A stretch of 64,000 nt of DNA from a virus. Numbering within the stretch: the first letter of the stretch is position 1; each line of letters opens with the position of its first letter. The notes under the pieces were generated by a model. That model saw nothing but the letters and a program-made list of their open reading frames with translations, was not told the origin of the DNA and did no database searches. The stretch is from positions 1-64,000 of the IMG/VR virus record IMGVR_UViG_3300042991_000159; one strand, given 5' to 3'. Positions 1,808 through 38,653 of the stretch are shown one piece after another. Both the position numbers and the translations under genes were made by a program.

Positions 1808-2830
1808 ATGGCATTTGCACATGGTAATCAAGCCTTAACGAAAGAGAACATATTAGTTAAAATCGACTCTTATCAGTTGTTTAAAGTATATTGTCCTCAA
1901 TTTAAGGAGTTAGGAAAGATGTTCAGTAGTGAATTTCGACCTGATCCAAAACCATCGTGCCATATTATTGTATGGAAAGGAGATTTATTGTACAAAGATT
2001 TCGGAGAAGAAGGTTATAGAATCTTTGATTATATAGCAAGAAAATTCGATACAGACTATTATGGAGCATTACGAAGAGTAAATGAAGATTTTAATTTAGG
2101 ACTTGGAGGGAATGTTACAAGTAGCACTAGTTCTTCTTTGGTTATCCCAGAGAAAGCTAGTGAAGACTTGTATACAAGAGAATACAGACCTACTATAATC
2201 CAGATTAAAAAGAGAGATTGGACAAAGTTAGATGTAAAATATTGGTCTGAGTACGAAATTCCATTAAAGCTTCTTGAATATCATAATACCAAAAGTATTA
2301 GTCACTATAGAATAGATAGTGCAAGAAAGGAAAATGCATTCTATGCTGTCAATCCTTATATGCTCGGATATTCTTTTGATTATTATTGGAGTAATGGGGT
2401 GTTCAGAAGAAAACTTTACTTTCCACAATTAGATAAAGGAAGATTCATTAGCAATGTGGATGATACAATTGTTCAAGGATGGACTTTACTTCCTAAATAT
2501 GGAAAAGTTCTTTTCATAACAAAAAGTTACAAAGACATATTGATTTTTAATTTATTAGGTTATTGGGCTATAGCTCCTAACAGTGAACTTACTTATATTC
2601 CAGATGCAGTAATGGATAAACTTAAACAACGATTTGAGAATATTTATTGCTGGTTCGATAATGATGAAGGTGGAATAAAAGGAGCTAAACAGTTTACTGA
2701 AAGATTTGATTTAGAAATGATTCACAATCCATTAGGAGAACCTAAAGACCCATCAGATTATGTTAAGAAATATCGTCTTAAAACCTTTGACACACTGGTA
2801 TCTAAATTTTTGAAACATGGCAACAGATAA
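1808..2830 (+). CDS. DNA primase (Toprim)
   Basis: N-terminal FR.D.KPSC...YKDFG region, Toprim-like ITKSYKD and FDNDEGG, C-terminal KDPSDY. Confidence 0.85.
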   Translation: MAFAHGNQALTKENILVKIDSYQLFKVYCPQFKELGKMFSSEFRPDPKPSCHIIVWKGDLLYKDFGEEGYRIFDYIARKFDTDYYGALRRVNEDFNLGLGGNVTSSTSSSLVIPEKASEDLYTREYRPTIIQIKKRDWTKLDVKYWSEYEIPLKLLEYHNTKSISHYRIDSARKENAFYAVNPYMLGYSFDYYWSNGVFRRKLYFPQLDKGRFISNVDDTIVQGWTLLPKYGKVLFITKSYKDILIFNLLGYWAIAPNSELTYIPDAVMDKLKQRFENIYCWFDNDEGGIKGAKQFTERFDLEMIHNPLGEPKDPSDYVKKYRLKTFDTLVSKFLKHGNR

Positions 2831-3541: not shown

Positions 3542-4153
3542 ATGAGTAAAAGAAAAGTAACACTCAAGCTTACGACACAGAAGGATTTGATCGAAACCGA
3601 ATCCTCAGCTCGTACATTTGGAGAACTTCAAAAAGAAATGACCAATGTTGAATGGTCAGGTATGAGAGTGGTCGTAAGATCAACCAAAAATACCTTGCAA
3701 GACGATAATGCTCTGCTTCCAGCAGAAGATTTTGTGTTGTTTCTGGTTCCTGAAAAGGTTAAGTCTGGTGTAGTTGAGAAATTGAAAAATATTTCGACTG
3801 CAACATACAACGATCTAAGAAGCCATATATCTTATCTGAATAAGATGAAAAAAGCTGGTCTTCCTTCGGATGGTGGAACTGAACAACTTCGTAAAGTTGT
3901 ACAAAGTTACTATGACACAAAGAATCCTGCAAAAGGTCCTGTAATTGCTTCCAAATCTACTTCGGTAGAAAAAAACAGTCGTATCGTAGCGATTGAAGAA
4001 GCTCGTATCAAGATTAATGAAGCAATAGACGTAATTATTGCCAATGCGGGAGAAGCAAAAACAGTTGAAGATACAACTGAATATCTTATCAAAGTGTCTC
4101 TTGAAGACCTTGATAAAGAGATTCTGGAACTCAAGAAGAGTTTAAGTCTTTAG
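3542..4153 (+). CDS. Ubiquitin-like protein precursor (beta-grasp-like residues 1-76 ending KVKSG, plus 127-aa extension)
   Basis: Strand-strand-helix(TFGELQKEM)-strand-LQDDNALLP-strand(FVLFLVP) pattern ending at Gly76; immediately upstream of E2-, JAB- and E1-like genes. Confidence 0.7.
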   Translation: MSKRKVTLKLTTQKDLIETESSARTFGELQKEMTNVEWSGMRVVVRSTKNTLQDDNALLPAEDFVLFLVPEKVKSGVVEKLKNISTATYNDLRSHISYLNKMKKAGLPSDGGTEQLRKVVQSYYDTKNPAKGPVIASKSTSVEKNSRIVAIEEARIKINEAIDVIIANAGEAKTVEDTTEYLIKVSLEDLDKEILELKKSLSL

Positions 4154-4164
4154 ATTGATTATAC

Positions 4165-4206
4165 AGGTAACTGTAGTCATATATTAAAGACTACAGTTAC
4201 CTTTTT
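4165..4206 (+). terminator. Intrinsic terminator/hairpin after the Ubl gene
   Basis: Perfect 14-bp stem AGGTAACTGTAGTC/GACTACAGTTACCT followed by a T tract. Confidence 0.85.
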
Positions 4207-4228
4207 ATTAATTTAAAGTAGAAAAAAG

Positions 4229-5944
4229 ATGACAACAAATACAAATGAATTTATACAAGTCACTTCTGGTACGTTCATTCAAAGTGTTTTTGATGATATA
4301 GAAGATACACGAACACTTGCAAATGTTACATATACAATTACTAGCGACACAAACGATATTTCTTTACTTATCAGTCCTGAATCATTATTAAAATCTGCTA
4401 CAAAAAAAGTTGAATCCAAAGTTCAACCAAAATCTAATCTTAAAAAAGAAATTTCTAAAGAAGAGAGGATTCAAAATTGGAAAAGAGAAGGATATATAAT
4501 AAAGAAAAAAAGAACACATGTTAGTGAAGTAATTATTGGTCCAAATGATATTCTTATTGCTATTGATTCTTATAATAGACCAAAAATTTTTCATACTCAA
4601 GGTGGAAAAAAAGGTACTGTTGGTGAATTAATGACCAATAACATACCATCAAGTAAGTATAGTGATGATTACAAAGAGTTAACTACTACTTGCTTTTTCG
4701 ATAAAAATATGAATCCTTTAGAATTAAAAGTTCCTTTTCCGCTCAATCAAACGAAAATGTTTCCATTGTTAAATGTAAATCAAATTGATAGAGCTAATTT
4801 TTTAAACGGTATGGATGGTATTGGAAGTAATATCTGGATTATTGTTGACAAAAAGAAATTTCTTCGTTCTAAAGGAAAAGATTTTGTTATACGTCAAAAA
4901 CATAATATTAGTTACGATATAATAAAATCTGTAAAAAAGAAACTTATAAAGAATTTTGTTTTTCAAGAAGAACTTCTTAATAAACTTAAAGAAATAATTG
5001 GTGGAATTTATGATGAAGATAAATTTGAAATTATTTATTTTCAAACTTTTCACAATTCTAACAAATTTTATATTTTCAATGTTTTTAATGATTTAATTAT
5101 TAAAAATTCCATTGAAATAGAACATAAAATTCATACTTTAATTACGAAACTTAATGGTACTCATGATATACTTGATAATGATAAATCAGTTTTCAATTTT
5201 CGACCAAGATTAGAAGGAATAAGACTTGTTTATAATCCAGTAGATTCTTTTTATTCTTATACTCACTCACATATATCAAGAGGAAATATGGGACACATGG
5301 CTAATTTCTGTATGGGAGGTAACAATTTTCTTTCTCATATGATAGGTGATTCAGTTACAGATGTTGAGTTTGAGGGAATTATGATTTCTCTTTTTGATCA
5401 TATATCTTGGGAGTCTCTTGAAGGTGGTCCTTATTTTAAAATGGAGGATATTGGAAAAAGTTCTAGTCAAATATTTATTATTATGAATGAATTACGACTA
5501 AGACTATATGATAAGGAATCACTTAAAAATATTTTTGATTTTCTAAGTTCAATAGACTTATCTCCTTTAAAAAAAGCTTTTACTTTAACTAATCCTACAA
5601 AAGATGGATTAACATATCTTTTAGATAAGGATGTATTTTATGAAGAATTTTGCAAATTTTGGAAGAAAGTTGTTAGTGTTGCAAAAGCAAAAATCGAGAA
5701 TATTGATTCTATGTATATCAATGGTGAGTATATACAACCCGCTATAGTTGAAATTGAGAATTTTAAAAATGATTTTCGTTCTTCTTCCTCTTATCCTTTT
5801 ATTAATCCTGATACGATTGATATAATTATGAAATACTTTCATTTTCAAATAAATAAAGAATTAAAAAATGATAAACAAAAAAGAAAAGATTACATATCCG
5901 ATATTCGAAATGCCGAGCAAAGGAAAACTGATTCTTCCGAGTGA
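4229..5944 (+). CDS. Putative E2-like (UBC-fold) conjugating enzyme with long N-terminal extension
   Basis: Motif YTHSH(346-348)...NFC(361)MGG resembles the prokaryotic E2 H-x-[NH]...C-x-G active site, followed by WESLEGGPY; sits between the Ubl and JAB genes. Confidence 0.6.
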   Translation: MTTNTNEFIQVTSGTFIQSVFDDIEDTRTLANVTYTITSDTNDISLLISPESLLKSATKKVESKVQPKSNLKKEISKEERIQNWKREGYIIKKKRTHVSEVIIGPNDILIAIDSYNRPKIFHTQGGKKGTVGELMTNNIPSSKYSDDYKELTTTCFFDKNMNPLELKVPFPLNQTKMFPLLNVNQIDRANFLNGMDGIGSNIWIIVDKKKFLRSKGKDFVIRQKHNISYDIIKSVKKKLIKNFVFQEELLNKLKEIIGGIYDEDKFEIIYFQTFHNSNKFYIFNVFNDLIIKNSIEIEHKIHTLITKLNGTHDILDNDKSVFNFRPRLEGIRLVYNPVDSFYSYTHSHISRGNMGHMANFCMGGNNFLSHMIGDSVTDVEFEGIMISLFDHISWESLEGGPYFKMEDIGKSSSQIFIIMNELRLRLYDKESLKNIFDFLSSIDLSPLKKAFTLTNPTKDGLTYLLDKDVFYEEFCKFWKKVVSVAKAKIENIDSMYINGEYIQPAIVEIENFKNDFRSSSSYPFINPDTIDIIMKYFHFQINKELKNDKQKRKDYISDIRNAEQRKTDSSE

Positions 5945-7040
5945 TATTATAACTCAAATTAATTTTCTTCATGGAAAAATAGGTAGTATTGAATGGTCAG
6001 GAATGTTATTTTATGATGTAGTTAAAGGTAATCCTTCTAAACCGGAAGATTTTGTGTTAAAAGTAAAACACATTTATTTAATGGATATTGGAACAGGTGC
6101 TTATACTGAATATGAAACCGATGGTGACTTCGTTGAAATCTATGATGAAATAGAAGAAGCTATGAACTGGAAAGTTGGTCATATTCATAGTCATCATACA
6201 ATGCAAACTTTCTTTAGTGGTACAGATATGGATGAACTACATGATAATGTTGATAAACACAATTATTATTTATCTTTAATTGTAAATCATGCTGGTAAAT
6301 ATCAAGCAAAGATTGCTTTTCTTTCTGATATTCATAGTTCTGCAAAAATGAATTTTATAAGCGATGAGGGATCAGTAAAACATTTTAAAACTCAGAACAT
6401 TGAGAAAAAAATGGCTGTAATAGATATGGATATCTATTACGAATATGCAGACCCTATTTTCTATAATCGTTATAATGCTATATTAAAGAAAAAAGAAGTC
6501 GCTAAGAAAGAAAAAGAGGTTAAGGAAGTTCAAGGTAATAAGTGGAATAGATGGGATAGAAAATATAGTCAAATGGGTGAACTTGATTTTCGAGCACTTC
6601 CTAAAGGAAAAAAAATAATTGAAGATGTTGATCCAAAAGATATGACAAACCTTCAAATTGAAAAACTTGCTCGTTGTATTTTTGCTGTTGATCCTGAATT
6701 AAAAGAAACAAGAACTAATTATCAAATCCTTCATCTTCTCGCAAATGTAAAAGAGGAAGAACTTGAATTCTATTATGATCATTTAGCTAACAACATAGAA
6801 TCAATTATTGAAAATTTCTTTGATGTAGAACTTGAATCAAATGAAATGGCAATTGTTCTTGATGAAGTAAAAGGTTCAATGATTCGTTTCCAAAATTCTC
6901 CTTATATTAAAAATGTAGTCAATGGTATTTCTGAGACCATTGATCAATTTTTTATGGATTTTACTAAGAGAGTCGAGGAAACCGATATGGAAGAACAGTT
7001 AGAAAAAGAATTAGAAAAAGAATTATTAGAAATGGAATGA
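5868..7040 (+). CDS. JAB/MPN+ (JAMM) metalloprotease
   Basis: Exact JAMM motif E42...H107-x-H109-x7-S117-x2-D120 (IEWSG...HIHSHHTMQTFFSGTD). Confidence 0.9.
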   Translation: MINKKEKITYPIFEMPSKGKLILPSDIITQINFLHGKIGSIEWSGMLFYDVVKGNPSKPEDFVLKVKHIYLMDIGTGAYTEYETDGDFVEIYDEIEEAMNWKVGHIHSHHTMQTFFSGTDMDELHDNVDKHNYYLSLIVNHAGKYQAKIAFLSDIHSSAKMNFISDEGSVKHFKTQNIEKKMAVIDMDIYYEYADPIFYNRYNAILKKKEVAKKEKEVKEVQGNKWNRWDRKYSQMGELDFRALPKGKKIIEDVDPKDMTNLQIEKLARCIFAVDPELKETRTNYQILHLLANVKEEELEFYYDHLANNIESIIENFFDVELESNEMAIVLDEVKGSMIRFQNSPYIKNVVNGISETIDQFFMDFTKRVEETDMEEQLEKELEKELLEME

Positions 7041-7735
7041 TGGATAAAATCGAAGTTAAAAAATCAAGATTTCGAGATGCATCATGGTTTGAAAAGATAG
7101 ACAAATTTAACGTTCCCGTTATCATTGGGGGAGCTGGTGGAATTGGTAGCTGGTTGACGTTATTTCTCGCAAGAATGTTGCCGTCAACCGGCTATATCTT
7201 TCTTTATGACTTTGATGAAGTCGAAGAAGTTAACATGGCTGGACAACTTTTTGGTAAAGAGCATCTTCGTATGCCTAAAGTACAAGCTGTATATGATGTT
7301 GTAAGCAGATTCAGTGATTATGAGAGAATGTCTCTTCAGAATATGAAATATACTTCTGAGAGTCTTCGTAGTCCTGTTATGTTTTCAGCATTCGACAATA
7401 TGCAAGCACGAAAAGATATGTTCCAGAATTGGAAAAAAGAAGAAAAGTTACATGATCTAGGTAAAATTTTTATTGACGGTCGTTTACTTGCAGAACAACT
7501 TCAAGTATTCTTTGTAACTCCCGAAACGGAAGAGAGATATGAAAAAGAATATCTCTTTGATGATTCCGAAGTTCAGGCAGAAAACTGTAGTTATAAACAA
7601 ACTAGTCATTTTGCAGCAATCATTGCTGCTAAAATGATTCAAGGTTTTACTAACTGGTTAGTTAAAGACCAAGCTGAACTTCCTTTTTATTACGAAGAAA
7701 TAGGTGGTTTATTTTTAACTAAAGCAGAAAATTAA
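7037..7735 (+). CDS. E1-like ThiF/MoeB-family adenylating enzyme
   Basis: GAGGIGS nucleotide-binding loop, DFDEVEEVNMAGQ, K81, AFDNMQAR, IDGR; the only Cys (C184) is in the crossover-loop position. Confidence 0.9.
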   Translation: MMDKIEVKKSRFRDASWFEKIDKFNVPVIIGGAGGIGSWLTLFLARMLPSTGYIFLYDFDEVEEVNMAGQLFGKEHLRMPKVQAVYDVVSRFSDYERMSLQNMKYTSESLRSPVMFSAFDNMQARKDMFQNWKKEEKLHDLGKIFIDGRLLAEQLQVFFVTPETEERYEKEYLFDDSEVQAENCSYKQTSHFAAIIAAKMIQGFTNWLVKDQAELPFYYEEIGGLFLTKAEN

Positions 7736-8472
7736 TGGAAATTAATATATTTTATAACGGTATAAAATTTGATTATGGTGATACTGCAATAAGATTTAGA
7801 ACCAATAGTAAATCTGAATATGTTCCGCTGATTATGATACTTCATAATAAAAGAAAAATTCCTCTTTTTACTGAAAACTATTGTGGCTTTTTTAAAAATT
7901 TAGAAAATCCGTTTACTTTTAAATATACTCAACGTGTTTATAAATTTAGCAGATCAATGATAAGAGCCAGATACAATAACGAAGATTATAATAGCAGATA
8001 TATTAGTATCTCAATGTTAAGTATATTTGGTATAAAAGATAAACTTGAAAGTGGGATTTCAAATCTTAAACAAGGGGATAGTCCAAATGTTAATATATAT
8101 AACAATATTGATGTTTTTGCCTTAGCAGTAATTAAGAAATCAAATATAAGGAAAATTAAAAATGAAAAGGAAAAATTTATTATTGATTCTCAATATATAA
8201 AGATTTTAGTTTCAAAAGAGAAATTTAAATCTCCTAAATATATGAATATCAATTATAATGCAACTTCAGGAAGACATCTTTTACGTGAATTTAATTTATA
8301 TACAAATTCTAACGATATAGAACAAATTGTCGTATCAGATGAGGAATTGAAGAAGTTTTATTATAATCCATTTGCTTTAAAAACTAATTCTATAATGGAA
8401 GCGATGGAAGAAGATCAAAACATTAAAGAAGTAGTATTTCATAAGTTACAACACAATTTAGTATATGATTGA
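7735..8472 (+). CDS. Hypothetical protein translationally coupled to E1
   Basis: TAATG overlap with the E1 stop codon; AT-rich. Confidence 0.7.
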   Translation: MEINIFYNGIKFDYGDTAIRFRTNSKSEYVPLIMILHNKRKIPLFTENYCGFFKNLENPFTFKYTQRVYKFSRSMIRARYNNEDYNSRYISISMLSIFGIKDKLESGISNLKQGDSPNVNIYNNIDVFALAVIKKSNIRKIKNEKEKFIIDSQYIKILVSKEKFKSPKYMNINYNATSGRHLLREFNLYTNSNDIEQIVVSDEELKKFYYNPFALKTNSIMEAMEEDQNIKEVVFHKLQHNLVYD

Positions 8473-9502
8473 TCAAGTAACCGAAGAGGTGTTTAAAAAC
8501 ACTAAAGGGGTAAGCTATTCACGATTATCTAAGTTGGCAGAAAGTCCACAGGCGTATCAAGCAGCACTAGCGGAGGAAGACGATTCCTCTGCTATGGCTC
8601 TTGGTTCGGCAGTGGATATAATGCTAACTCAACCAGAAAGATTTGAAGAATTAGTTTATGTAATGTCTGCGGAGAAACCGGGAAGCGAAATGATGCAAAT
8701 ATTTTGTGAGGTTTACGCTGAGACAGAAGATAAAGTGCGTGCTCATGCAGCATCAGGATTTAAAATTAATCTTGATCGTGTGATGATTAAATTTAACGAA
8801 GAGGGGAAAGAATATTATGAGGCGATTATTAAAGGAAAAGGAAAAAAGATTCTCGATATAGAGGGGATGTTCAAGGCAAACAAAATAGTTGATACATTAA
8901 AAACTAATCCTTGGACTAAAAAATATTTTGTACCGGAAGAAGGAGTTGAACTTTTGTTTCAACCAAAAATTATATGGGACCTACCTTATCATTCATATGT
9001 TGATGATAAGTTAAGAACAGTTACAGCGAAATCAATGTTGGATGTAATACGAATTGATCATGCGAATAAAGTGATTCAGCCTATTGATCTGAAAACAGGA
9101 GCAGAAAGCTTTATGAAAGCTTATTGGAAATATAGACGGTATCTTCAGGGAGCTATGTATACAACAGCTACCCATTATGCGTTATCTTCTGATCAGGCTC
9201 TTATACAGGAATATGAAATTGAGAACATGAAGTTCATATTTGCAGATAGTAACTTAGTATTTCCACCTGTAATTTATAAAATGTCAAATGTTGATTATGA
9301 CATTGGAATAGCAGGATTACATTATACTACGTTTGCAAATGATAAGATGCAGATTATTACAGATCGTTGGAAAGTAAAAGGATACTCTCAACTTGCAGCA
9401 GAACTTGAATGGCACGAAAAGAATAATATGTGGGACTATAGTTATGATGTCTATCAGAAAAAGGGTGAGTTAGACATTGATGCGTTTATCGTTAAATTTT
9501 AA
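8465..9502 (+). CDS. PD-(D/E)XK exonuclease (RecE/ExoVIII/Cas4-like)
   Basis: SYSRLS N-terminal motif, ALGSAVD, KSMLD...PIDLKT, YLQGAMY. Confidence 0.8.
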   Translation: MIDQVTEEVFKNTKGVSYSRLSKLAESPQAYQAALAEEDDSSAMALGSAVDIMLTQPERFEELVYVMSAEKPGSEMMQIFCEVYAETEDKVRAHAASGFKINLDRVMIKFNEEGKEYYEAIIKGKGKKILDIEGMFKANKIVDTLKTNPWTKKYFVPEEGVELLFQPKIIWDLPYHSYVDDKLRTVTAKSMLDVIRIDHANKVIQPIDLKTGAESFMKAYWKYRRYLQGAMYTTATHYALSSDQALIQEYEIENMKFIFADSNLVFPPVIYKMSNVDYDIGIAGLHYTTFANDKMQIITDRWKVKGYSQLAAELEWHEKNNMWDYSYDVYQKKGELDIDAFIVKF

Positions 9503-9512
9503 ACTATAAGAT

Positions 9513-10280
9513 ATGACAGAAATAAGAAGTAATCTAATAAAACTTACCAATACAAAAAGCGTTACAGTAGAACCGCTTAATGGTAAGTGTTTAGAGATTA
9601 ATACCTCTTCTGTTTCATTTCTTAATGTCCAAAAGAATGATGATGATTATATTACTCGTGTTTCACTTGAAGATAAAGAATTTATCGAAATTGGAGACCG
9701 ATTCAAAGTCAGAATTGGAGAAGTCTATTCTGTCTATGAAATAGTATTTATTGTCATAGAAACGAATAACAAATCAATATTACTTTTTAGTTCAATTCCT
9801 ACAAAAACAACAACTTTTTTATTACCCTTGATGGATAAAACAAAGTTACAATTGAGGTATGATACGTATTTTATTAATGCGTTTATTACTGAAGATTCAA
9901 AACATATAGCTCTATTATATAGATTCACCGGAACAATGATTTATAAGGAATTTGAATTTAGTTTAATGAGTGATCCCTTATTTGTTACCCATGTAGATTA
10001 CAATCCTTATCTTGTTATGTATATTTTCAGAATTGAAGAAAGATTTGAAGATGACATAAACTTTTTTAAAGAAGGAAAGTATTCTAAATTCTCTAAGACG
10101 TTGAGACAACGTATTCAGAAATTTTATGGAGGTACTGATTTAGCAGCTACATTAAGAATTATTAATAAAGACGAAAGTCTCAGAAAAAAAATGGAAGAAC
10201 ATCTTGGTGTTGAAATTTCTATTGATTCTGAACTAGCGTCAGTACCTGATTTAAAAAAAGAAATTTATAAAATAGAATAA
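9513..10280 (+). CDS. Hypothetical phage protein
   Basis: Long ORF in operon; no recognised motif. Confidence 0.7.
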   Translation: MTEIRSNLIKLTNTKSVTVEPLNGKCLEINTSSVSFLNVQKNDDDYITRVSLEDKEFIEIGDRFKVRIGEVYSVYEIVFIVIETNNKSILLFSSIPTKTTTFLLPLMDKTKLQLRYDTYFINAFITEDSKHIALLYRFTGTMIYKEFEFSLMSDPLFVTHVDYNPYLVMYIFRIEERFEDDINFFKEGKYSKFSKTLRQRIQKFYGGTDLAATLRIINKDESLRKKMEEHLGVEISIDSELASVPDLKKEIYKIE

Positions 10281-10658: not shown

Positions 10659-11459
10659 ATGGCAAGAAGAATCAATAATGATGGAGGATATAGTAGAGCT
10701 ATGAACGCTCTTGTTCCTGCACGTACAGAATCGTATTCACCTGTTCCTCATTCTTATTTTTTGGAAACTGTTCAAAATGTAATTGGAGCAAGAGGTGATT
10801 TAGAAGTAACAGGAAACAGAATTTACACAAACCTGAATGGTGAAAAACTCGTAGGTTTTACAACAGTAAAATTCAGAGGAATGGAAGTTGATCCTGAGTT
10901 TGGTCTTGAGATGATGTTAGGATACAAAAACAGTTATGATAAATCAATGGCTGCTGCTCTCGTAGCAGGAGCAAGTGTAATGATTTGCAGTAACGGTTGT
11001 ATTGGTGGAGATATGCTTACTTTTAAGCGTAAACACACCGGAACCATCGAAGAAGAACTCGTTGAAAAAACAGCATTAGCTGTTAATTGTATGAGAGACG
11101 GATTTGCTAATCTGGTACTGGAAGTTGACATAATGAGAGATTATGCACTTACCCCAAGACAGAAAGCAGAACTTCTCGGTATTATGTACTTTGAAGAAGA
11201 TATGGTATCTCCTAATCAACTTTCGATTATTAAAAAAGAGATAATAAATTCTAATCATTTTAGAGGTAACACCCTCTGGGATTTGTATAATAATGTAACC
11301 GAGTCTCTCAAGTCTTCTCATCCTCTTTCACATATAGAGGACCACATTAAGCTTCATCGGTTTATGTGTGGTGTCGCAGGTATATTACCAGAAGAAATAG
11401 GAGAAGTACACGAGATGGTAGAAGAAAGTGAACAAAATGAAGCAACAATTGAAGGATAA
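10659..11459 (+). CDS. DUF932-like phage protein
   Basis: YSPVPH, NSYDKS, G..VMICSNG, KHTG and TLWDLYNNVTE motifs. Confidence 0.75.
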   Translation: MARRINNDGGYSRAMNALVPARTESYSPVPHSYFLETVQNVIGARGDLEVTGNRIYTNLNGEKLVGFTTVKFRGMEVDPEFGLEMMLGYKNSYDKSMAAALVAGASVMICSNGCIGGDMLTFKRKHTGTIEEELVEKTALAVNCMRDGFANLVLEVDIMRDYALTPRQKAELLGIMYFEEDMVSPNQLSIIKKEIINSNHFRGNTLWDLYNNVTESLKSSHPLSHIEDHIKLHRFMCGVAGILPEEIGEVHEMVEESEQNEATIEG

Positions 11460-26493: not shown

Positions 26494-29400
26494 TTAACCT
26501 TTACATCGTTTAATTCTTTCTTCTACTTCTCTATCAGAAATTATAGCTCTTAAATTACTCGGAGCAATTCCTGCATCCCTATTACTTAAATAAATATTCT
26601 TTAACGCACCTTGATTAATTCTATCTTCATATACACCCATTCCTTCAATCTCCTGTCTTTTTGGTTGTACTGAATGTTGATACTCATGTTCCATAACAAA
26701 ATTCTTCCATTCTTCAAAGGTAGTAAAAGTATCCTCTTTTAGTGCCATTGCATATGTTCCATCTTTTTGTTTTCTAGGAGTAGTCCATGCTTTTTGATTA
26801 TATTTTTCAGAAAGCAAGTTAGTATTTATTTTAATGATATTTTTTTCTCTATCGTATTGAGCACCTCCCGGTTCTCCTGTAGCAGTCTGAAATTCACCTT
26901 CTTCAACTATCATTCCTCTATAAGTTTGTTTATTATCAGTAATGAGATCAAGAGTTTCGTATAAAGTATGTTCAAGAACACTACCTTCTACCACATCAAA
27001 ACCTATTACTTTTAATAAGTTAACTAATTTTTCTTTAATTGCATCCCAAAACGTTCTTTCTTTAGAGAAAGGAATATTATTAAGAAGTTTTTGAAACTCA
27101 GGATCGGTAAGAGCTTGAGATATAAATTCTTCAGTATTAGTAAATCCATAATAGGAACTAATTTCTGCTTCTGATACTTCACCACCTTTAGTTTTACTTT
27201 CAAAATTTTTAATAAATGTATCATATGCTTCTTTATGTTCAGGCGATTGAGTAATAACGTTTTTAGCTTTCTCTCTTAAATTATCAATAGACTCAATAAT
27301 TTTTCTTTCACGATCTGTTAAAGTTACCCCGGTAATTCTCTTAAATGCTTCAAATCTATCTTTTTCACCACTCTTTTCTAATGTATAATATCTTACTTTA
27401 TAACCAGTTAAAGCATGGAGTAATTCGTGTATAAATACTTTATTTACTTTATAAGCAGTATTAAATAGTTCTGAACTAAGAGTATCTTTATATAGAGTAA
27501 TATCATTTTCTCCATAATCTATTTGCCCAGCAGATAATCCAGTAGGAGAATTTAAAACACTAAGAGTAAACGATTGAGGTAAAACATCAACACTGTCAAA
27601 TATCTCTTGAGCAAGAGTGCTTTGATATTTATCATCTCCATAAGTAATAATTTCGTTTAATACACTTTTTATTTTCTCCTTACCATCTAAGAAAGTTAAT
27701 GATTTTTGCTTACCGTTCTTAAGATCATTCAGCAGATTATCTCTACCCTTGCGTGAAGCTATTCTACCACCTTCGGGTATAGGTTCACCCGGAGCTGGAT
27801 TCGTAGGATTCTTAGTTTTAGAAGACTTTTTATTTCTTTCAATAAGAGATACTTGATCGTAAGTATTTCTATTATACTCACTTGCACCAAATATTCCAAG
27901 TCTATCAATTTCTTTATAGCTCTGCGATCTTGTATCAAATTTAAATAATTTAATTCCTGTCTTACCTCTAAAAGTAACATATGCGGGAGAACGCATTTGA
28001 AAAGAAACAAGTTTACCAATAACATCTATAACTTCTTGTTTAAGAGTAAATCCATCTTTTACTTTAATAATGTCTTCTTCGGTAACACTCGAAAGTCTCT
28101 CAGGATGATGCTGAAAATATTGTTGCACAAATGTTGGTATATTATAATACTCATCTACGTCATCATTCATTACAGAAATTTCTAAATCTCTTGCAAGAAA
28201 TCTCTGATCAGCCAAATTTTTCATAAACGGTATATTAGCAAGATAGGTTGCAGGAATATATTTCACAAATTGAATAGCTTCCTGAATACCACCTGTAATA
28301 TAAGAATACAAAATCAGGTCTTGTGCAAGTTCTTTTAATGAATAACTATTTCCATTAAATGTAGTAATAATAGGACTATTACCATCACTATCTTCAGCCT
28401 GAAGCATTTCAATAAATGATCCATACATAGCAGTCTCGTCAGGGTCTTCGGCTTTAGAAGCGTTAAATGTTACGAGAGAAGGATCACCGTTTTTTTGAGG
28501 TTCCCCCTCTAACTGGGAAAGGAAAGGATGTGCTTTGCCAAACTCAGTTTTTTTGATTTTTCTAAGTACGGTTGCAAGGGATTCTTTAGTATTATTTCCA
28601 TTTTCATCCCATTTATCATATAGAAGTCTCTCACGTTCCTGAGTGATCGTAGAATCATGAAGACCAAGACTTTCATCAGCATAGAAGAACGATTTCATTT
28701 CTTTCCAAACTGCTAGTCTTCTATTAGCTTTATCGGCTACTTGAACCTCGTTCGATCCCGCACCAATTTCTTCTATCTTATTAAACATTGCTTCTATTCC
28801 TGACTGTTTATAAGGAAATAATACTGACCAAAGATCATTATTAGTGAATAGTCCATGTACAATAGCCTGACCGTTGATATTAGAAGGTTTCACATAATAT
28901 ACTTTCCCACCATGTCTTCTAAATATATATCCTTCAGCTTCAAGTTTTTTTACTTGATCGGCTTTAGGATTTTTTACAATATCTCCTATTAATAATTCAG
29001 CATTAAGTACGGGAGAAGCAAGAAGATCGAAAACTTGATCTTCTTTAAGTTGAGATTCCATAACAGATTTACCAAGTCCCGCACTGTCAGGATTAATAGT
29101 TGACTGAAGAGTTTGAATAACTTTTCCTAAGTCATTAATATAGACAAACTTATGCAAGAATAATCTCTGAGCCATAGCATAGTTAGGTTCAGCAGCACCA
29201 TTCTTAATATAAGCTCTCATTTGAGCAGGGGTAGCTTTCTCGTGTGCAAGTTCAGAATTAAATTCTTCATCGTCTCTAACCTGATACTTATCCATAGCAA
29301 AAACATTCGTTTTTGCCACTTCCTCTTTATTAGGAATATAACCTGTAAGAGAACTACCGAGTCTATCAAGTTCCTTTACATAATCTACAATTATATCTTG

Positions 29401-32400
29401 AGAAATAAACAAAGGTACTTCTTCTCCAAATCCTAATTGGTTCAGAATTTTGATAACTTTGAATGTATGGTTATTTATGTTTAGTTTATCCAGAATCTGT
29501 TCTTTTTCATTATCTACAGCCGCAGATTGATAACCAGCAATAATATCTGACTTATATGTTTTACCATCTAATGCAAGTTCTTCTGAAAGATTACCTTTAG
29601 ATGTTAACTTTCCAAAAGTAATTTCAAGAGGAATTAGATTCCCGTCTTCATCACGATCACGTATAACCAAATCTTTACCTTGAGCAATAGTATTGAACAT
29701 ACTGTCAAGAGAGAATACACCTACACCGGCTTTACCAGCAGTAGCGTTCTTGAACTTGTCCCTTTGATACTTGTCAGAGAGACCAGTAAACATTTTACGA
29801 GAACCAGCTTGTTGTAATGAAGCAAGTTTAAATTGCAAGTATTCAAATGTTTTAGGAGCCTTTTCTTTTAATTTAGCTAAACCTGTACCGAATCCGTCTT
29901 CTGGTATGACTATAGTTCTACCTTCAGGAATAGAATCAAATGCTTCATTTATATATAACGTGTTTTCTTCATACTCGTCGTCCGTAAAGAACGAATCCTT
30001 ATCCATAGAAGGTTTCTTCTTTGTCGGTATGCCTAACGCATTAGGTTCTCCACGCATTTCTTTTGCTTGACCGTCTAATCCTGTTTTTTCTAAGTTGTCT
30101 CCAAAAAGATATAGTTTGTCTGGATTATTCTTTAAATCTTGTCTCGAAATAAACTTTTGAGTTATGACACGAATTTGTCCTGTGTCAGCACGAGCTTCGT
30201 GTAAATCAACCACTTCCTCTGCAAGTTCTTTTAACTTCCAGAAACCTAGAGGATTAGCTATTTGAGCTTGTACTTCTACAGCAGGATTGGAATGAATAGC
30301 AATATGAGTATCAATTATCTTATTTTGTAGAGCAGCAGAACGATCTTCACCCTCTTCTCTTCTTTGTACTTTGATATTACCTTTCGAATCAGTATAAGTA
30401 TTGTACATATACGTGTACAATTTGTCAACATCAAAATCGGAACCCATTTGTACAACATAATCTTTTGTAGCAATCAGTAAATCACCAGATGATTCAGGAA
30501 GAAAACCGACAATTTCAATCCAAGACTGAGAATTCGGACCCTGATTAGGTATTCTCATACCAAATAGTTGTAACACTTCCGGTAACACCTTAGAGGAATC
30601 GAGAACTAAAGTTCCATTAACTTTAGTTACATAGTCTTCCATTTTTAGAAGATTGCCTCTCTTGTCCTTGAATTTCCAAGGTACAAGTGCTTGAGCAGGT
30701 AGTCTTATACCATTTTCTTCACGTGCAGGAAGTAATTTCCCTGTCCATTTACTTGTATAAATGATACCCGCCTGAGTTGTTTTCCTTTTCTCTTCTTTCT
30801 CAGAAAGAGTTTGAAAACCTTCCTCTGATCCCAGAACATAAGATTTTCCCGGCATTTTAAGTCTAATAACTCTATTTGTAACGATAGAATTAAGCAGAGC
30901 TTCATATTTATTAGAAGATGGTGAGAATGCAAGAAAATCAAGCTCATCATCAAGCTGAATCATTTCCTGATCAGAGATAGGATAGTTTCTGCTTTTAGCT
31001 TCTTCTAAAAGTATTCTTCTCAGTTCATTTCTGTTATATGATTCAGTTTTTGGATTCCATTGAAGTTCATCAAGTAGTTTTTGTTTTTCAATCTCATGTA
31101 ATTGATTGAATACTTTATGATATTCTTCCTGAAAAGTTGCACCATCAATCTCTTTACCGTCGTTTATCCAAGGTACTTTGAATCCGCCTACATTTAACAT
31201 ATTCACAAACAGGTTCTTAGAAGCCTGAGTTACTTTAGTGATTTCATTAACCGATTTTTCAGGTATTTTTTGTTGAATCCTGAATCCTTTTCTTTCAAGT
31301 TGAGTCTTTTTACCCGTAAAAGAAATTTCATCAGCCTTTATAATTTTGCCATCTTCACCAAAAATATTCAATGGATCAATTATATTACCTACTTTAACAG
31401 CAGTACTATATGCAACTCTATCAATTCCTTGATTTTCCATAGCAATACGAAGATTCTCAAGATCAGTTCCTCTTGTAAGTTGAGGTAATAAAGGAAAAGA
31501 AGAAGATTTAATATAGATTCTTTTCTCTACATCGTCTGCTTCATCTATTTTATTATCAACATACACAGGCTTCATAGGTTGCATTACTTTACCTAAAAGT
31601 TTCTTACTAACAATATCCTTGTTATTAGATAGAGCAAAGTATGCTTCATTATACTCTTCATCAGAAAGTTCACCTGATTGTTTCATAACATAGAGATGTT
31701 CCTTCCATGTAGTATATTCTTGAGCGTCAGCACTATCAAATGAATAGTAACGTTCACTGTTTAATCCTTTAATAGTTTTCTTTAATTCGCTTGGATTTTT
31801 AGTTGCTTTTACTTTATCATATGCTTCTTGTCCATCTAACAGTTTAGTTATCTGGAACGCTGCTTCAGATTTAGACTTTGGATCAGCTATGAATCCCTGT
31901 ACGTATCTGTTTTCATTAGCACCTGCAAGTTCATAACCGGGAGCAATATCACCAGCTAAACGTTTCCCAATATTAATATAGGTAGCTTTTGCATCAGCTA
32001 CGAAATCATAATCTTTATCGGTTCTACTTTTATTCTCATTAACTTTAGCTTGTTTGTAATATAAAGCAGGATCACCAGTAAATGTCATAGCTATTTCAGC
32101 ATTAGCTATAAGATATTGAAATACCATATCTGTAGCAGCTCCACGTATTCTATTCTTCTGATCTACACCATTCAGAGGATTATGTTTTTTAGCAAGAGAA
32201 CCACTCATATATTCACTATTCATATAATCATTGTTTCCCTCTCCAATACCTTCCATTTTCCATTCCGCTTGTTTCTCATCTACAAGACTTAGAACATATT
32301 CCTTAATCTTATTTTTAATAGCATCTTTAACTTTACCATCTAATCTTATATCCGGATTAAGTTCCCCACCAATAAATACATCAGGAATAGTATTTATTTC

Positions 32401-35400
32401 AGGAAGAAATAGAAATTGTCCTGCTCCTTTAGAGTATCCTTCTACATTAGGTGTATTTCCGTTTTTTCTTTTTAATTCAAATGATTTAATTCTTCTGATT
32501 TCTGGTTCCACAAGAACATCATATAACGTTTCAATAGATTCATCAGTAAGATTCCCCTCTCTATCCATAGTAAGATCACGTGCTAATACACGTAATCCCA
32601 TAATAGTAGTCTTATCAGATGTAGTAGGATAGAGAATTTGAATAACTCTGTTACCTTCGTTTTTATTGTCTGTATAAGAAGCTTGTAACATACCGATTTT
32701 GGCTAATTCTATCTCACCCTGAGATAGTTTACCCATTTCAGCATTATCACGACTCTTAGCTTTCATTTTCTTTAGAGGTTCTAACGAGAATATCCATCTG
32801 TCAAAATTAGCTGTAAACGCATTATCCCCTCCATTTTCTTTGAGTAAATCAATCCATTGAGATGCACCATTAAAAGAAAGTTCAGATAATTGATCAATAA
32901 GAGGATTAGTTCCGTTCTTAAAGTCTTTCATCTCTCTCACACGATTAATCATGTATTTATTTTGCCCATAAGAATATACAGTCTTGTTACCAGTACGATG
33001 TGAATTACTATAACTATAAGCAGCGTACATAGCTTCATGTTTAGCAAGATTTTTTACTACTCCTTCAGTAATAAGTCTATTACCGCTTATTAAAGAAGCA
33101 TCTTGTCTTGTATGAATGTTGCTTGCTAGTACATGAAATAATCCACCTTTCATCATTTGATTCTTCAGGCTTACTTTCTTTCCATAACGTTTAACTTCAC
33201 CTGCAATCAAATCTCTAAATGTTTCATTAGTTAACGTGATACCAAGTTCTTGTAACCACTGTCTCATTTCGTTTGCATGAACAATAGGATTAGGTGATTC
33301 AGTCCATTTTTGGAAGGTTTCCCAGAGACGATCACGATCAGTTTCTGCTAGAACATAGTCAGTAGCATCATTAGGATTCCTTACAGCAGTATTAACAATA
33401 AGGTTTACATACCAATCACGTAATACCACATCTGCAATAGCACTAGCGTTAGATTGTTGTTCAACAAGCTCCCATTCTCCTTTATAATTTTGACCCCACA
33501 TCACGAATCTCATATTCACATCATGATTAGTCATACCTACAACGAACTGGTTTTTAATTTGCTGTGGTGCTCCTTCCAGTTTACTTACAAATTCTTTCAT
33601 AAACGGAAATGTTTTCATCGTTTCGGAATCATTAGCTATCCTACGTAATTCAAACATTATCTCATCAAAATCTGGTTTTTTGTTAGCAGTAAGTCTTTGT
33701 ACAATATTATATAGTTCTTGGAAAGTCATGGTTTCTGACAATCCTAAATAATTCTTAGATGGAACAACTTTTCCTGTATGATCTACTTTGAACTTTCTAA
33801 TACCTGACATGAACCACTTAATTTCAGAAGCAAGACCTCTTACCGGATTTAGTGTAATAACATCCCCCCAACCGTCATTTTCATTAGTAGCTTCTTTTTC
33901 TTCTGTAGTCTTATCTTCTTCCTCATCTCCCGGTTTAATTGTAATATCATCTATTCTAGTAAGTTGATCGTCAGTAAGAGCAACAAGTTTAGACCAGTTA
34001 TTAAGTATTAGATTGAACTCATTAAGAGCAGTCTGGTGTCTTGCAATTAATTCTTCATCACCAATAACTTTAGCTTTAGCTAAATTTCTTTCAGCTTTAT
34101 CCCTATTGGATTCAAACATCTTCTTAATAGTACCATATATTTTACCCGTCTGAACTTTCTTTTGTTTATATAAAGTTTCAACAAGTTTGGCTCTCATATA
34201 ATCCGTAACTTGTCTTTGTTTTGCCGCACCCATATCAGCAATAATAACACCCTTAAGTTCACCATCTTCAACAGTAACGTCAGCATCTTTTTTCATTCTT
34301 GCAAGAGCATCTTTATCTAAAGGAGCAGCTATATTGGCGGTAAAGTCAGTATCTTGTGGGTTCATGTCCTCATCATAGTCTTCAAATCCTGTAGGATTCT
34401 CAGGCTTAATATCTTGAGGCTTCTCTCTTGCCTTTTTTTTCTCAGCAGTTTGTTTCTTTTTTTCTTCATAAGTAATCATCTCCCCCTCTGCATAATACAT
34501 ACCTGCAATAATTGGTTCAAGTTCATCTTTTCGCTCCGGAGTAGTATTTGGGTCATTCCATTCTTTTAGTAATCTCTTAAACTTTTCAATCTCCGTTTCC
34601 TCGGTCTCTTCTTCTATCGCACTAAAATCCATTTCAATAACGGGTTGACTTGTATATACATAATTAGGATTCTTTTCTGTTCCTATATTGAAAGAAATAA
34701 AAGGAATCTTACTAGTATTCTTAGTATGCTCATTATAAGACATTGAAGTCACATTACCTTCAGTATCAATGTAAATAGCTTTATCCTGAGTATTTTCCAA
34801 ATTGGTTTGGAGATACATATTACTTAATTTTTCACGTATCTTTTCGAGACGAACAGTTTGTTCATTTGGTGAATGTTTGGAAATCCAATCTTTATTAATA
34901 AACGTTCTGCCTATTCCTTGTCCACGAGAAATTTGGAAGTTCACATCATTTTCTCTACGTTTCATAGAGGTAAAAACCGTTCTACTTTGTTTATTACCTG
35001 TATTTTCTGCTAAAAAAATTTTTAAGTCTGAACTTTCACCAATATCGTAGTTATTAATAAACATTTGTAAATAATCTGTAATACCTTGAGGAGTAGTAAT
35101 GTTAATAGTATTATTACTTTCTTTTAAAATACCATCAACGATCTTATTAGATTTCTCATCATTTTTTTCATAATAGAAAATTTCTAATGCGGTCATCATA
35201 CCTTCCAGAATCTGTTCGTGTTCTGAAACTTTGTCCATAAGCAAAGGAATAGCTATCTCCTGATCTATTCCAATAGGAATCATAATATAAGTAACACCTT
35301 CTTGTGGTTCTGTTTTATTTAAAAGTTTACCTCCTTTATAATCTGTATTTCTATCAGTTACATAGTTTCCTTTACGCCCAACTACGATAGGTAAGGATTT

Positions 35401-38400
35401 CTCCGGCATTGCTTGGCTGGTTTTAATATTCCCGTCTACTGATCTTTGTAGATATCCTGTAGTCTTCTTGCTAATCTTAGTATCAAATGTTTTATTCTTA
35501 AGCATATATCTACGGATAGTTCTATTACGATCTTTATCTTGAGCAACATTACCCGATATGTTTTTTTCGTTAATCCATATTGTTTCGTGTAGATAACCAA
35601 TTTTTTTACCATTAGAATAAACAGCAATAGGAGTTTGTTCAAGTATCTTTTCTTTTATCTGCTCAGTAGTAAGTTTAGGATCAGCATTCCATTTAGCTAT
35701 TTTAGCACCCCAAGTAGTTATTTCACCCGTATCTTCATCATAAACTCTATTATTTTCATTATCATCTATTTCAAGTCTAACTTTATCTCCTACTTTAAAT
35801 TGATGTTGATCAAGAAGTTCTGGTACAAGCATATCAGCATTAATAGCATCTTCTATGTCTTCTTTAGAAGCAAGACCTTTTTTAAACTTGTTGATATATT
35901 TTCTTGCAAGATATGCAAGTTTAGTAGCCCCCGATCTAACTCTAAGATAATCTGTCTTAATGTTATTTTCACTTGGGTCTTCATCTATATTCTTTCCGTT
36001 AATTACTACATCAATCTGATCTTGAGCATTTTTAATTTGCTCATTAGTATTGTCTGTATATTGAGTTTTAGTACTCACGTTACCATGAGAATTTTGTCCG
36101 TCTATTTCTCTTCGTTCATCAACAGTGGGTTTAATAAACTTATTAAAATCTCCTATAATCTGGTAGTTGGGATATATTATTTTATATGCTTCTTCGAGTG
36201 CGGGAAAAGCATTTTCGGTAGCAACAACTCCTACTCTATCAATCATTTCGTCAACTACATCCTCGATACTTACACCTAGACTATTTTTAGCTGTCTTTGT
36301 AAGATTTATTAAGGTGTTGGTTAAAGATACCTTATCTGAACCTTCTAGTGTAAGATTAGTAGTGGCATCATTAAATTCTGAATCAAGTTGTAATTTTCTT
36401 TTCTCTTGTTCTATTTGATCTGCTGGAATATCAGTTACATCCTTATCTTCAGGAATTTGAGCATCGGCTGCTGCTTCAACATCAAACATATCTGGTGTTT
36501 CATCCTCTACTATACCTGCTTCTTCAGCTTGTTGTTCAGCTTGTTGTTCAATTTTATCTTTTTTTTCAGCCTGACGTTCTTTATCAACTTTATCTTTCTT
36601 TTCCGCTTTTTTTCTTTTGGTTTCAACTTCTTCTTCTTTTCTTTCTCTCTTAACTTTATCTTTAAGGTCTTTTATAATTTTCTCTTGTTGCTCTTTTTTA
36701 TCTTTAACTTTCTTTCTTTCCTTTATCTGAGTTTCAGGAGAAATCATAAATTTATAAGCTACATCAAGTTCGTTTAGATTTTCAGTCAAAGTTTCTAATG
36801 TCTTATTATATTCAGTTAATCTATCTTCCATTTGAGGATCACGATTCTCTTGAAATTCAAGGTCTGCTTCAATTTCATCTCTAACTCGTCTTACTTCATT
36901 AATATCCTGTTGTAGAGACTGTCTATTCTCACGATTAAAGAATATATCTGCTTGATTTTCATAACGACCATACCTATTATAATCGCTTTCCATTCTCTGA
37001 AGTTCTCTAAGTTGAATTTCAGCTTGTTCTTTATAATTATTATCCCAACCATTAGCTTTAGCTTCTTCAGGTGTAGTGTTAGCTACATCTTGAAGATCAC
37101 GTTCAAGTTTTTCAGTAGTTCCTTTTTGGAAGTTTTCTTTAGCTATCATACGAAATACGGACTTCTTAACTATTTCAGCAAAGTTATCTTTTCCTGTTGC
37201 ATATGATTCTGCTTTAAGAGCTTCAGCTTGAGCTAACCAAGAAAGTTTCTGATTTACAAATTGTTTATTAGCTTCAATTTGTTCTTGTTGTTCTTGATAT
37301 CTTGCCGCATATTGTTTTTTAGAACTAGGTGCTAAATTACCACTAACAGCTTCAGTAAAAACACGTTGTGGACCACCACCAAATACACCCATCAGACCTT
37401 CAAGAAGAGCTTGGTCTGATGTAGCGAATTGAATTACTCTCTGAGTTAAATCTTCAGGAATATCAGATACGTCTAATCCTGCTTCTTTTCTGGATTGATA
37501 CTGACCTTCCATCTGAATTATATTTTGACCAATTTCTTCAGCACCTTCCTTAGCACCTTGAATTAATAGATTATCAGTAGAAAGTGTGCCAAATCTTTTT
37601 GCCCAAGTAGTTAAATTCTTTTCTTTTAATAGATTACGAGTAACCCCTTTGGCTTTAAATATACCATGAAGTCCTATTGCATCTGTAAGAGCAAATACTT
37701 TATTACGATTGATAAACTGGTTTGCTTTTTCACCAGCAATCGTTTCAAATTCTTTTAACTTATCTGTTTCTAACTGAAGATTAGTAATCTGTTCAGCTTT
37801 TTGTATAAGCTCTTCCTTGCTCATCTCAGGATTAAGAGCTTGTTGTTCATTATAATTTTGTTCAAAAAGACCTTGTTGCATTTGTCCCATAGAGTTTTCA
37901 AATTGCTCTATAGCCATCATTTTACCTTCAGCAAAATTTGTAATATAACCAGAAACTCCTGAATTGATTGCTTGTGCTATTTTAGGATTTTGACCTATCA
38001 TACTAAGATATTTGTCAAGTCTAGCCGATCTTTGAACAAATTTATTAACTCTTGTTAGTTCTGCACCAAGTTTTATACCTTTCTGAACAGCACCTATACC
38101 TTTAGATACGGCCATACCGGGAATAGCAAAACCTACAGCACTGTCAAGTATTCCTTTGAGAGAAGAGAAATAGAAGCCGGGATCAGACCAATCAAATACT
38201 TGATCCGTCTCTCTGTGAATAGGCATAGCTTGTTCCAGACCCTTCTTAGCGTCTTCCATTACTTGAGAAAAAGCATTAGTATCTACTTCTTCAAGTCCTT
38301 GTAAACGTTTGATATTATTGTCAAAGTCAAGAAGATAACCAACATCCTCTAAAGCAGTAAGCGCACCTGAAGCGATACCACCAACAATAGCATTGAAAGC

Positions 38401-38652: not shown

Positions 38653-38653
38653 A

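Follow-up and report, generated by a model that had tools for sequence, protein, structure and literature searches.

A five-gene ubiquitin-like cassette beside the primase gene of crAss-like phages: a probable phage-encoded protein modification system

Introduction

Does a virus of prokaryotes carry its own machinery for attaching ubiquitin-like proteins (Ubls) to other proteins? The question is raised by a gene cassette in the first 64,000 nucleotides (positions 1-64,000, here called the window) of the IMG/VR virus record IMGVR_UViG_3300042991_000159, a complete record of 99,795 bp that represents the whole viral genome. The cassette consists of genes for a Ubl precursor, a protein designated X, a JAB/JAMM metalloprotease, an E1-like adenylyltransferase and a protein designated Y (Table 1). 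To our knowledge, demonstrations of ubiquitin-type conjugation in prokaryotes have so far concerned cells alone, where it has recently been shown to act also as a defence against phages. That this is a real, conserved and phage-restricted five-gene Ubl cassette, with a tag, a protease and an activating enzyme, is well supported, and it is probably a phage-encoded system for ubiquitin-like protein modification.

Results

Gene organization

The list of open reading frames (ORFs) confirmed the coordinates and the overlaps of four consecutive, partly overlapping plus-strand genes that had been described in an earlier note on this DNA. The X and JAB genes overlap by 77 nt, or by at least 35 nt if Met15 is the start of JAB, and JAB in turn shares 4 nt with E1. 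The earlier note had regarded the operon as complete with these four genes, which did not hold, as a fifth conserved gene, that of Y, follows E1 with an overlap of 1 nt (position 7735) and is translationally coupled to it. Several other features claimed in that note were found as described, namely the KVKSG ending of the Ubl domain at residue 76 (...VPEKVKSG in the translation), an intact JAMM protease, a ThiF/E1 protein with C184 as its sole cysteine and no CxxC pair, and the placement of the cassette in a replication block with the primase gene and others upstream. Its suggestion that the cassette is widespread in crAss-like phages is supported by the related loci described next.

Conservation and distribution of the cassette

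A total of 83 loci were compared, made up of 80 loci from an IMG/VR scan together with crAss001, FpV4 and the window, with families assigned by iterative searches. The order Ubl-X-JAB-E1 on one strand is kept in 70 of the 83 loci, and most of the remaining ones are truncated at a contig end or contain an insert that interrupts a gene. Upstream of Ubl, 78/83 loci have a primase homologue. X is present with the other three genes in every complete locus; the loci were gathered through X, so this co-occurrence is conditional on X, and some near-duplicates exist among them. In 54 of 68 loci the gene directly after E1 falls into one family by transitive links, and crAss001 gp75 and its FpV4 counterpart are among the members. 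The gene order in crAss001 is primase, gp79, gp78, gp77 (labelled "metalloprotease"), gp76 ("ThiF") and gp75, with an identical layout in FpV4. Comparison by hhalign identifies crAss001 gp78 (93%) and the corresponding FpV4 protein (98.9%) as homologues of X. The pattern of genes and residues observed is far beyond chance.

All relatives of E1 that tblastn detected lie either in Crassvirales records (crAss001, DAC15/17, PhiCrAssBcn and uncultured cr-phages) or in phages of the Flavobacterium psychrophilum FpV4 type, where the protein is labelled "thiamine biosynthesis protein". No match was obtained by tblastn of E1 against plasmids or of X against GenBank phages. When 1.84 billion representatives were searched with a profile, 2331 relatives of X were returned at E<=1e-3. 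Among prokaryotic genomes (185,579 species, one genome each), the scan gave a single X locus, on a contig of a Flavobacteriales metagenome-assembled genome (MAG; locus L084), and the family therefore appears to be essentially confined to phages. Two close homologues of the Ubl precursor (P0058 and P0059) have been deposited under Candidatus Heimdallarchaeaceae MAGs. Both these and the Flavobacteriales match are probably phage contigs that were binned into MAGs.

The five proteins are conserved to differing extents. Identity to the nearest relatives is 73-80% for the Ubl domain, 60-75% for E1, 44-54% for JAB, 25-38% for X and 26-35% for Y, so that the Ubl domain and E1 are conserved like the primase and the Sak4-like protein, whereas X and Y diverge about twice as fast. 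The tail that follows the Ubl domain shows 39-67% identity, compared with the 73-80% of the domain itself. LAGLIDADG homing endonuclease inserts of 1.0-1.3 kb, several of them with the endonuclease on the opposite strand, were found in eight related loci (Table 1), splitting either JAB, just past the JAMM motif, or E1. These inserts are probably introns homing into the most conserved parts of the two genes, and their pattern looks like that expected of homing into conserved, needed genes.

Ubl precursor and the hairpin that follows it

Residues 1-76 of the Ubl precursor form a beta-beta-alpha-beta-beta grasp in an AlphaFold2 (AF2) model based on 31 homologues, with a predicted local distance difference test score (pLDDT) of about 90, and are followed by four helices. 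Searches of this model against the PDB with Foldseek returned DWNN, DIX, ubiquitin, ISG15 and the Caldiarchaeum ubiquitin, with overall template modelling (TM) scores of 0.6-0.69 and root mean square deviations (rmsd) of 2.2-2.9; the alignment with ubiquitin covers 76 columns at an rmsd of 2.2-2.5 A and a TM score of 0.65-0.69. G76 is invariant in 83/83 loci. Judged from sequence and model, the domain thus has both the fold and the conserved terminal glycine of the beta-grasp modifiers, in support of the earlier reading.

The ORF stops 1-4 residues past G76 in 13 loci, and elsewhere it continues into tails of 24-206 residues that are widely different from one another. Where Ubl ends at the glycine, a separate ORF of 37-104 residues encoding an acidic helical protein usually fills the gap between the Ubl and X genes. 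These small proteins resemble the C-terminal helices of the fused tails, and the one in L030 itself ends in Gly-Gly. Because such a separate ORF is usually present when the tail is missing, the tail looks like a neighbouring protein that has become fused and that would need to be cut off. An invariant glycine followed by a variable tail is what marks a modifier whose C-terminal glycine must be freed.

A terminator-like hairpin separates the Ubl gene from the gene of X. It has a perfect 14-bp stem (4165-4178 / 4189-4202) and a 10-nt loop followed by a T-run, with a minimum free energy of -30.8 kcal/mol and a z-score of -6.8. Hairpins with z below -2 were found in 50 of the 53 distinct Ubl-X spacers of relatives, and T-runs follow the hairpin in several that were inspected, including those of crAss001, FpV4 and L015.

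E1-like adenylyltransferase and JAB protease

The E1-like protein matches Pfam ThiF (PF00899) at E 7.6e-15 with 55.1 bits, against a cut-off of 28.1. Its GxGxxG-type loop (G32/G34/G35/G37) and D58/D60 are conserved, as in the Rossmann-type adenylation domain of the E1/ThiF/MoeB superfamily (PF00899), and nine residues (G32, G34, D60, N66, K81, D120, R125, R149 and C184) are invariant in 46 sequences. The profile of these sequences matched 60+ E1 chains in the PDB, with UBA5 (2.4e-14) at the top, followed by MccB, UBA3, TcdA, ThiF, UBA1, SAE2, MoeB and Cap2 (2e-7), and with PaaA also among the best matches. The alignments span residues 18-122 only, and C184 is likened to C250 of UBA5 and C184 of ThiF by its position in the chain and not by alignment. 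The E1-E2 models of PADLOC matched E1 at E 2e-4, covering about 60-100 residues of its N-terminal nucleotide-binding part. E1 is a minimal single-domain form of the enzyme that lacks zinc-binding CxxC pairs.

The protease carries the zinc-binding and catalytic JAMM motif, E...H-x-H-x7-S-x-x-D, as E42, H107-x-H109-x7-S117-x-x-D120, and these five residues are invariant in 43 sequences. Evidence from hidden Markov models for its identity as a protease is weak. The Pfam Prok-JAB match (E 1.6e-3, 18.7 bits) is under the cut-off of 25, and the NCBIfam matches to desampylase (E 0.02) and PRTRC_A (E 0.03) are weak. A profile of the N-terminal part also matched the PDB weakly, with CSN5 at the top (E 0.06-0.14, aligned on the JAMM motif) and JAMM1 and AMSH-LP lower, whereas the full-length profile was drawn to designed helical proteins through its C-terminal half.

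Protein X, a candidate E2-like transfer enzyme

X consists of a disordered stretch (residues 1-90), a beta-rich N-terminal domain (100-225), a conserved core (229-410) and a C-terminal domain (429-570). Nine residues are invariant in 142 sequences (N293, S347, H348, C361, G363, E395, S396, G399 and P401), with H346, R332, F360 and W394 nearly invariant and a WESLEGGP motif at 394-401, a pattern of conservation that resembles that of an enzyme. C361 lies 13 residues after H346-S347-H348. In the AF2 model (pLDDT 82.6, predicted TM score 0.76) the core begins with a long helix (229-258) and four antiparallel strands (266-335), after which come the HSH loop, C361 and a further helix (378-392), and this predicted order of elements is that of the UBC fold. 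Judged from the same order, C361 is a candidate for the catalytic cysteine of an E2, with the HSH loop where an HPN-type loop would lie.

Comparison of the model by VIA-align gave weak but recurrent matches to UBE2O, BIRC6, UbcH7, UBE2N, UBE2K, UBE2H and the UEV domain of TSG101, collectively chains of the UBC/UEV/RWD type. These matches cover 117-129 residues of E2/UEV chains that are 142-196 residues long, and they map to residues 243-412 of X (157-395 for TSG101 and 245-505 for UBE2N). A wide VIA-align search was swamped by helical matches at residues 448-571. Prok-E2_D is found in 11% of the members of the Atlas neighbour cluster of X.

The model thus suggests that X is a probable E2-like transfer enzyme. 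Several results weigh against this assignment. No match to X was found in Pfam, PHROGs, PADLOC, NCBIfam or the PDB sequences with the single sequence or with profiles of 8 and 89 sequences, PADLOC showed no likeness to BilB, and none of the E2-family Pfam models (UQ_con and Prok-E2_A to E) was found in 89 members of the X family even at E<=10. Foldseek gave no match of the model in the PDB at E<=0.001, and against BFVD it returned only uncharacterised crAss-like phage proteins. H346-S347-H348 and C361, named in the earlier note, are present in the 571-residue protein. The reading of this protein as an E2 is matched by no E2 family in sequence and by no Foldseek result, the recurrent VIA-align matches are weak, and X is accordingly kept here as a candidate.

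Protein Y and the surrounding genes

Only P31 is nearly invariant in Y, which contains no invariant residue of an enzyme-like or catalytic type. No match to Y was found in Pfam, PHROG, NCBIfam, PADLOC, PDB or Atlas.

The cassette is preceded by genes for a Sak4-like protein, the primase and a RusA-like resolvase, and the gene of Y is followed by those of a PD-(D/E)XK exonuclease and a DUF932 protein. Further downstream neighbours include a 255-aa protein without annotation that recurs in 46/83 loci. A single ORF of 4072 aa, adjoined by ORFs of 1338 and 1408 aa, occupies the minus strand elsewhere in the window, and giant ORFs of this kind are known from crAss-like phages. Since PHROG typing of the large structural ORFs gave a single match, that of the 1408-aa ORF to a virion structural protein, the crAss-like label of this phage rests on synteny and on the relatives of E1 and X.

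Table 1. Positions of the cassette genes and of other features mentioned in the text (window coordinates unless a locus is named)
Feature	Position	Strand	Remarks
Ubl precursor gene	3542..4153	+	203 aa; residues 1-76 (3542-3769) beta-grasp ending KVKSG, 77-203 helical tail
Terminator-like hairpin	4165..4209	+	Between the Ubl gene and X
X, candidate E2-like transfer enzyme	4229..5944	+	571 aa
JAB/JAMM metalloprotease	5868..7040	+	390 aa; catalytic domain ~30-150 and helical C-terminal half
E1-like adenylyltransferase	7037..7735	+	232 aa; single ThiF-type domain
Y, fifth gene	7735..8472	+	245 aa; directly after E1
DNA primase gene	1808..2830	+	Upstream context, not a cassette component; PHROG DNA primase 9.5e-38
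PD-(D/E)XK protein (DUF3799, exonuclease VIII-like)	8465-9502		Downstream of the cassette
255-aa protein	9513-10280		No annotation
DUF932 protein	10659-11459		Downstream of the cassette
4072-aa ORF	26494-38712	-	Next to ORFs of 1338 and 1408 aa
LAGLIDADG inserts, L054	7012-8119 and 9149-10373		
LAGLIDADG insert, L048	7207-8363		
LAGLIDADG insert, L031	7114-8070		
LAGLIDADG insert, L024	1224-2188		
LAGLIDADG insert, L040	8278-9467		
LAGLIDADG insert, L063	8074-9340		
LAGLIDADG insert, L066	8684-9675		
Separate ORF in the Ubl-X gap			L014, L019, L022, L030, L039, L041, L045, L046, L049
PRTRC locus, L091	3954-12898		Bacteroidota genome G060

Discussion

Comparison with known systems

In its proposed way of working the cassette comes closest to Bil, but it is a member of none of Bil, Type I Bub, PRTRC and CBASS. 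Bil (BilA-BilB-BilC-BilD) is a bacterial anti-phage Ubl conjugation system with separate Ubl, E2, JAB and E1 proteins (PMC11601596). Both systems divide the same four roles among separate genes, have no E3, are thought to leave the choice of target to the E2 and are expected to use catalytic cysteines. They differ in that the present cassette is encoded by a phage, contains a fifth gene and a Ubl tail, and has an E1 of 232 aa with a single adenylation domain in place of the IAD-AAD-CYS architecture of the Bil enzyme. PADLOC gave no match to BilA, BilB or BilC and only a marginal one to BilD (E 0.016). Under the definition of PMC11601596, this single-domain E1 and the BilD value of 0.016 place the cassette outside Bil.

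Type I Bub, formerly 6E.1/DUF6527, consists of BubAB, BubCD and BubE, in which a Ubl-E2 fusion, a JAB-E1 fusion and a DUF6527 serine protease operate through Tyr and Ser oxyesters (PMC11601596). The likenesses are a JAB domain that cuts, or here is predicted to cut, a Ubl fusion after a conserved glycine, a small single-domain E1 and a highly diverged E2 with a Ser/His pair, X too having an invariant Ser-His pair. However, the phage genes are separate and the cysteines of E1 and X are both invariant, whereas Bub has no catalytic cysteines. No DUF6527 was found among the Pfam results of the five proteins at the thresholds used, and the cassette is accordingly not a Type I Bub system.

PRTRC sets belong to conjugative elements and are usually described on mobile elements. 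The likeness here lies in a Ubl/E2/E1 set carried on a Bacteroidota mobile element among replication-type genes and in the DUF932 gene near the phage cassette, and it was this gene, together with weak NCBIfam matches, that gave rise to the idea of PRTRC membership. No similarity to a real Bacteroidota PRTRC locus was found. Comparisons by hhalign of X with PRTRC_B and of the Ubl family with PRTRC_C gave probabilities <1% (0.3% for X and PRTRC_B), and in NCBIfam the scores are 24.9 bits against 144.75 for PRTRC_ThiF and 13.9 against 101.8 for PRTRC_A, with no match to PRTRC_B or PRTRC_C. The Bacteroidota locus (L091, Table 1) encodes a DnaN-like clamp, PRTRC_E, PRTRC_C (Prok_Ub), a 464-aa protein, PRTRC_B (Prok-E2_D), PRTRC ThiF and, later, a primase-like protein; no JAB was found in it. 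Here, too, a Ubl set lies among replication-type genes, but one that is unrelated to the phage cassette.

Two further systems share parts of the cassette. Tail assembly in lambda and T1 involves protein I, in which a beta-grasp with a conserved terminal glycine is joined through a linker to a C-terminal domain, and protein K, a JAB joined to NlpC (Iyer et al. 2006, PMC1779556). This is likewise a phage beta-grasp with a terminal glycine paired with a JAB that is predicted to cut after the glycine, but the lambda set lies in the tail module without an E1 or an E2-like protein, whereas the present cassette has both and lies in the replication module. CBASS type II, with its Cap2 E2-E1 fusion and Cap3 JAB, resembles the cassette in combining E1 adenylation, an E2 step and a reversing JAB, and Cap2 is among the PDB matches of the E1 profile. 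It differs in having its E2 and E1 fused, in conjugating the C-terminus of a cyclase without any Ubl, and in serving host defence.

Proposed mechanism

The Ubl would be made as a precursor, and because a conserved terminator-like hairpin follows its gene it would probably be made in excess over the enzymes, to which proportion the hairpin fits. The JAMM protease would then cut after Gly76 to release a free 76-residue ubiquitin-fold protein and the helical tail; this cleavage is proposed because the glycine is invariant, some relatives end just after it and Type I Bub offers a precedent. The short ThiF-type E1, whose motifs are present, would adenylate Gly76 with ATP, and Cys184 would probably take over the Ubl as a thioester. 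From there the Ubl may pass to X, in which Cys361 follows an H-S-H loop at the place taken in an E2 by the HPN motif and the catalytic cysteine. The choice of target lysines would fall to the outer domains of X and to Y, all of which evolve fast, and the protease may also take the tag off again.

The fixed position beside the primase gene points to targets among proteins associated with DNA replication, of either the phage or the host, and the speed at which X and Y diverge suggests proteins of the host. The roles put forward in the earlier note, namely tagging of host defence proteins, counteraction of host Ubl systems or modification of replication proteins, are conjectural.

Alternative explanations

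The alternative that survives best, though it is unlikely, leaves the relay unchanged and alters the chemistry of X, which would act through an oxyester on Ser347 activated by His346/His348, a route that the earlier note had not considered. Cys361 would then have a structural role or serve as a second station. Of the three loop residues, S347 and H348 never vary and H346 hardly does, and the Bub E2s, once dismissed as inactive, have an invariant Ser with a nearby His, the Ser333/His335 of Type I Bub providing an oxyester precedent (PMC11601596) in a system whose JAB domain likewise cuts its Ubl fusion after a conserved glycine. On the other hand, Bub uses Tyr and Ser and lacks the cysteines corresponding to C184 of E1 and C361 of X, both of which are invariant in the phages. 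Moreover, the HSH loop precedes the cysteine, as HPN does in E2s, and by the order of elements it is not at the catalytic position.

Next in standing, and improbable in our view, is a role of the Ubl as a sulfur carrier. E1 would adenylate Gly76, a host persulfide would convert it to a thiocarboxylate, X would thiolate a nucleic acid or a small molecule, and JAB would only trim the carrier, as it does in CysO/Mec+ and QbsE/QbsD. Sulfur-carrier pathways, too, are composed of a beta-grasp protein with a terminal Gly, a JAB and a ThiF-type E1 that has no separate Cys domain, the best NCBIfam matches of E1 are ThiF models, and X is an enzyme of no established family with an invariant Cys. However, those ThiF matches (53.3 bits) are far under the cut-off of 159, and the earlier observation that the window holds no thiamine or molybdopterin genes could be extended to the whole 99.8-kb genome, in which no rhodanese, cysteine desulfurase, PP-loop ATPase/thiolase, ThiG or MoaE was found, although partners might be supplied by the host. 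The cassette is thus not assigned to the ThiF/ThiS or MoeB/MoaD pathways. Furthermore, the Ubl ends in Ser-Gly or Ala-Gly and not in Gly-Gly, no PP-loop or radical-SAM motif was found in X by Pfam or among the conserved residues of 142 sequences, and the rate of change of X and Y, twice that of their neighbours, is not what one usually sees in a biosynthetic enzyme whose substrate is fixed.

We give still less credence to a scheme without transfer to other proteins, in which the beta-grasp domain is a cleavable chaperone or tag for the tail, or E1 acts in cis to modify the C-terminus once it is free, in the style of MccB and PaaA, while X and Y do an unrelated job in replication. It draws on the tails, which differ widely among phages and can be a separate small ORF, on the presence of MccB and PaaA among the best matches of the E1 profile, on X not being demonstrably an E2, and on the JAB cleavage of a Ubl fusion that was proposed for phage tail assembly (Iyer et al. 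2006, PMC1779556). But processing alone fails to explain the 13 phages with a nearly tailless Ubl, which still keep E1, JAB and X; the conserved part is the Ubl domain and not the tail; and X, whose gene overlaps that of JAB, accompanies the other three genes in all complete loci.

Least likely of all is a mainly counter-defensive role, in which the phage JAB would strip the conjugates of Ubl (Bil) or cGAS (CBASS type II) made by the host, or the Ubl and E1 would jam the host machinery as decoys, or both: host Ubl conjugation systems are anti-phage (PMC11601596, PMC10097602), X and Y evolve rapidly like arms-race genes and the family is almost confined to phages, but a decoy could do without the combination found here, in which the adenylation site is intact and the E1 cysteine and the terminal glycine are both invariant, the cassette is a fixed neighbour of the primase gene in very diverse phages and not a variable accessory gene, and apart from the marginal BilD match no Bil component was matched.

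Conclusions

The preferred reading remains that of a phage-encoded Ubl modification system. In its fullest form, crAss-like phages and their relatives would run a complete Ubl conjugation pathway of their own, with a previously unnamed, phage-restricted E2-like family and a fast-evolving specificity partner, and would tag host or phage proteins during DNA replication; on this stronger proposition we find belief and doubt evenly balanced. In the literature searched, with subscription-only papers outside its scope, no paper was found that describes the cassette or links the crAss-like ThiF or metalloprotease genes to Ubl conjugation.

If true, viruses of prokaryotes would for the first time be seen to encode a ubiquitin-type conjugation system, a mirror image of the bacterial Bil and CBASS defences in which the virus side employs the same chemistry. 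A new family of transfer enzymes would be gained, and the database labels "thiamine biosynthesis protein" and "metalloprotease" would be corrected. The same five genes are present in cultured phages, namely crAss001 (gp79-gp75), DAC15 and the Flavobacterium phage FpV4, which makes the proposal open to testing. Its carriers would be the most abundant phage group of the human gut, together with marine and freshwater relatives.

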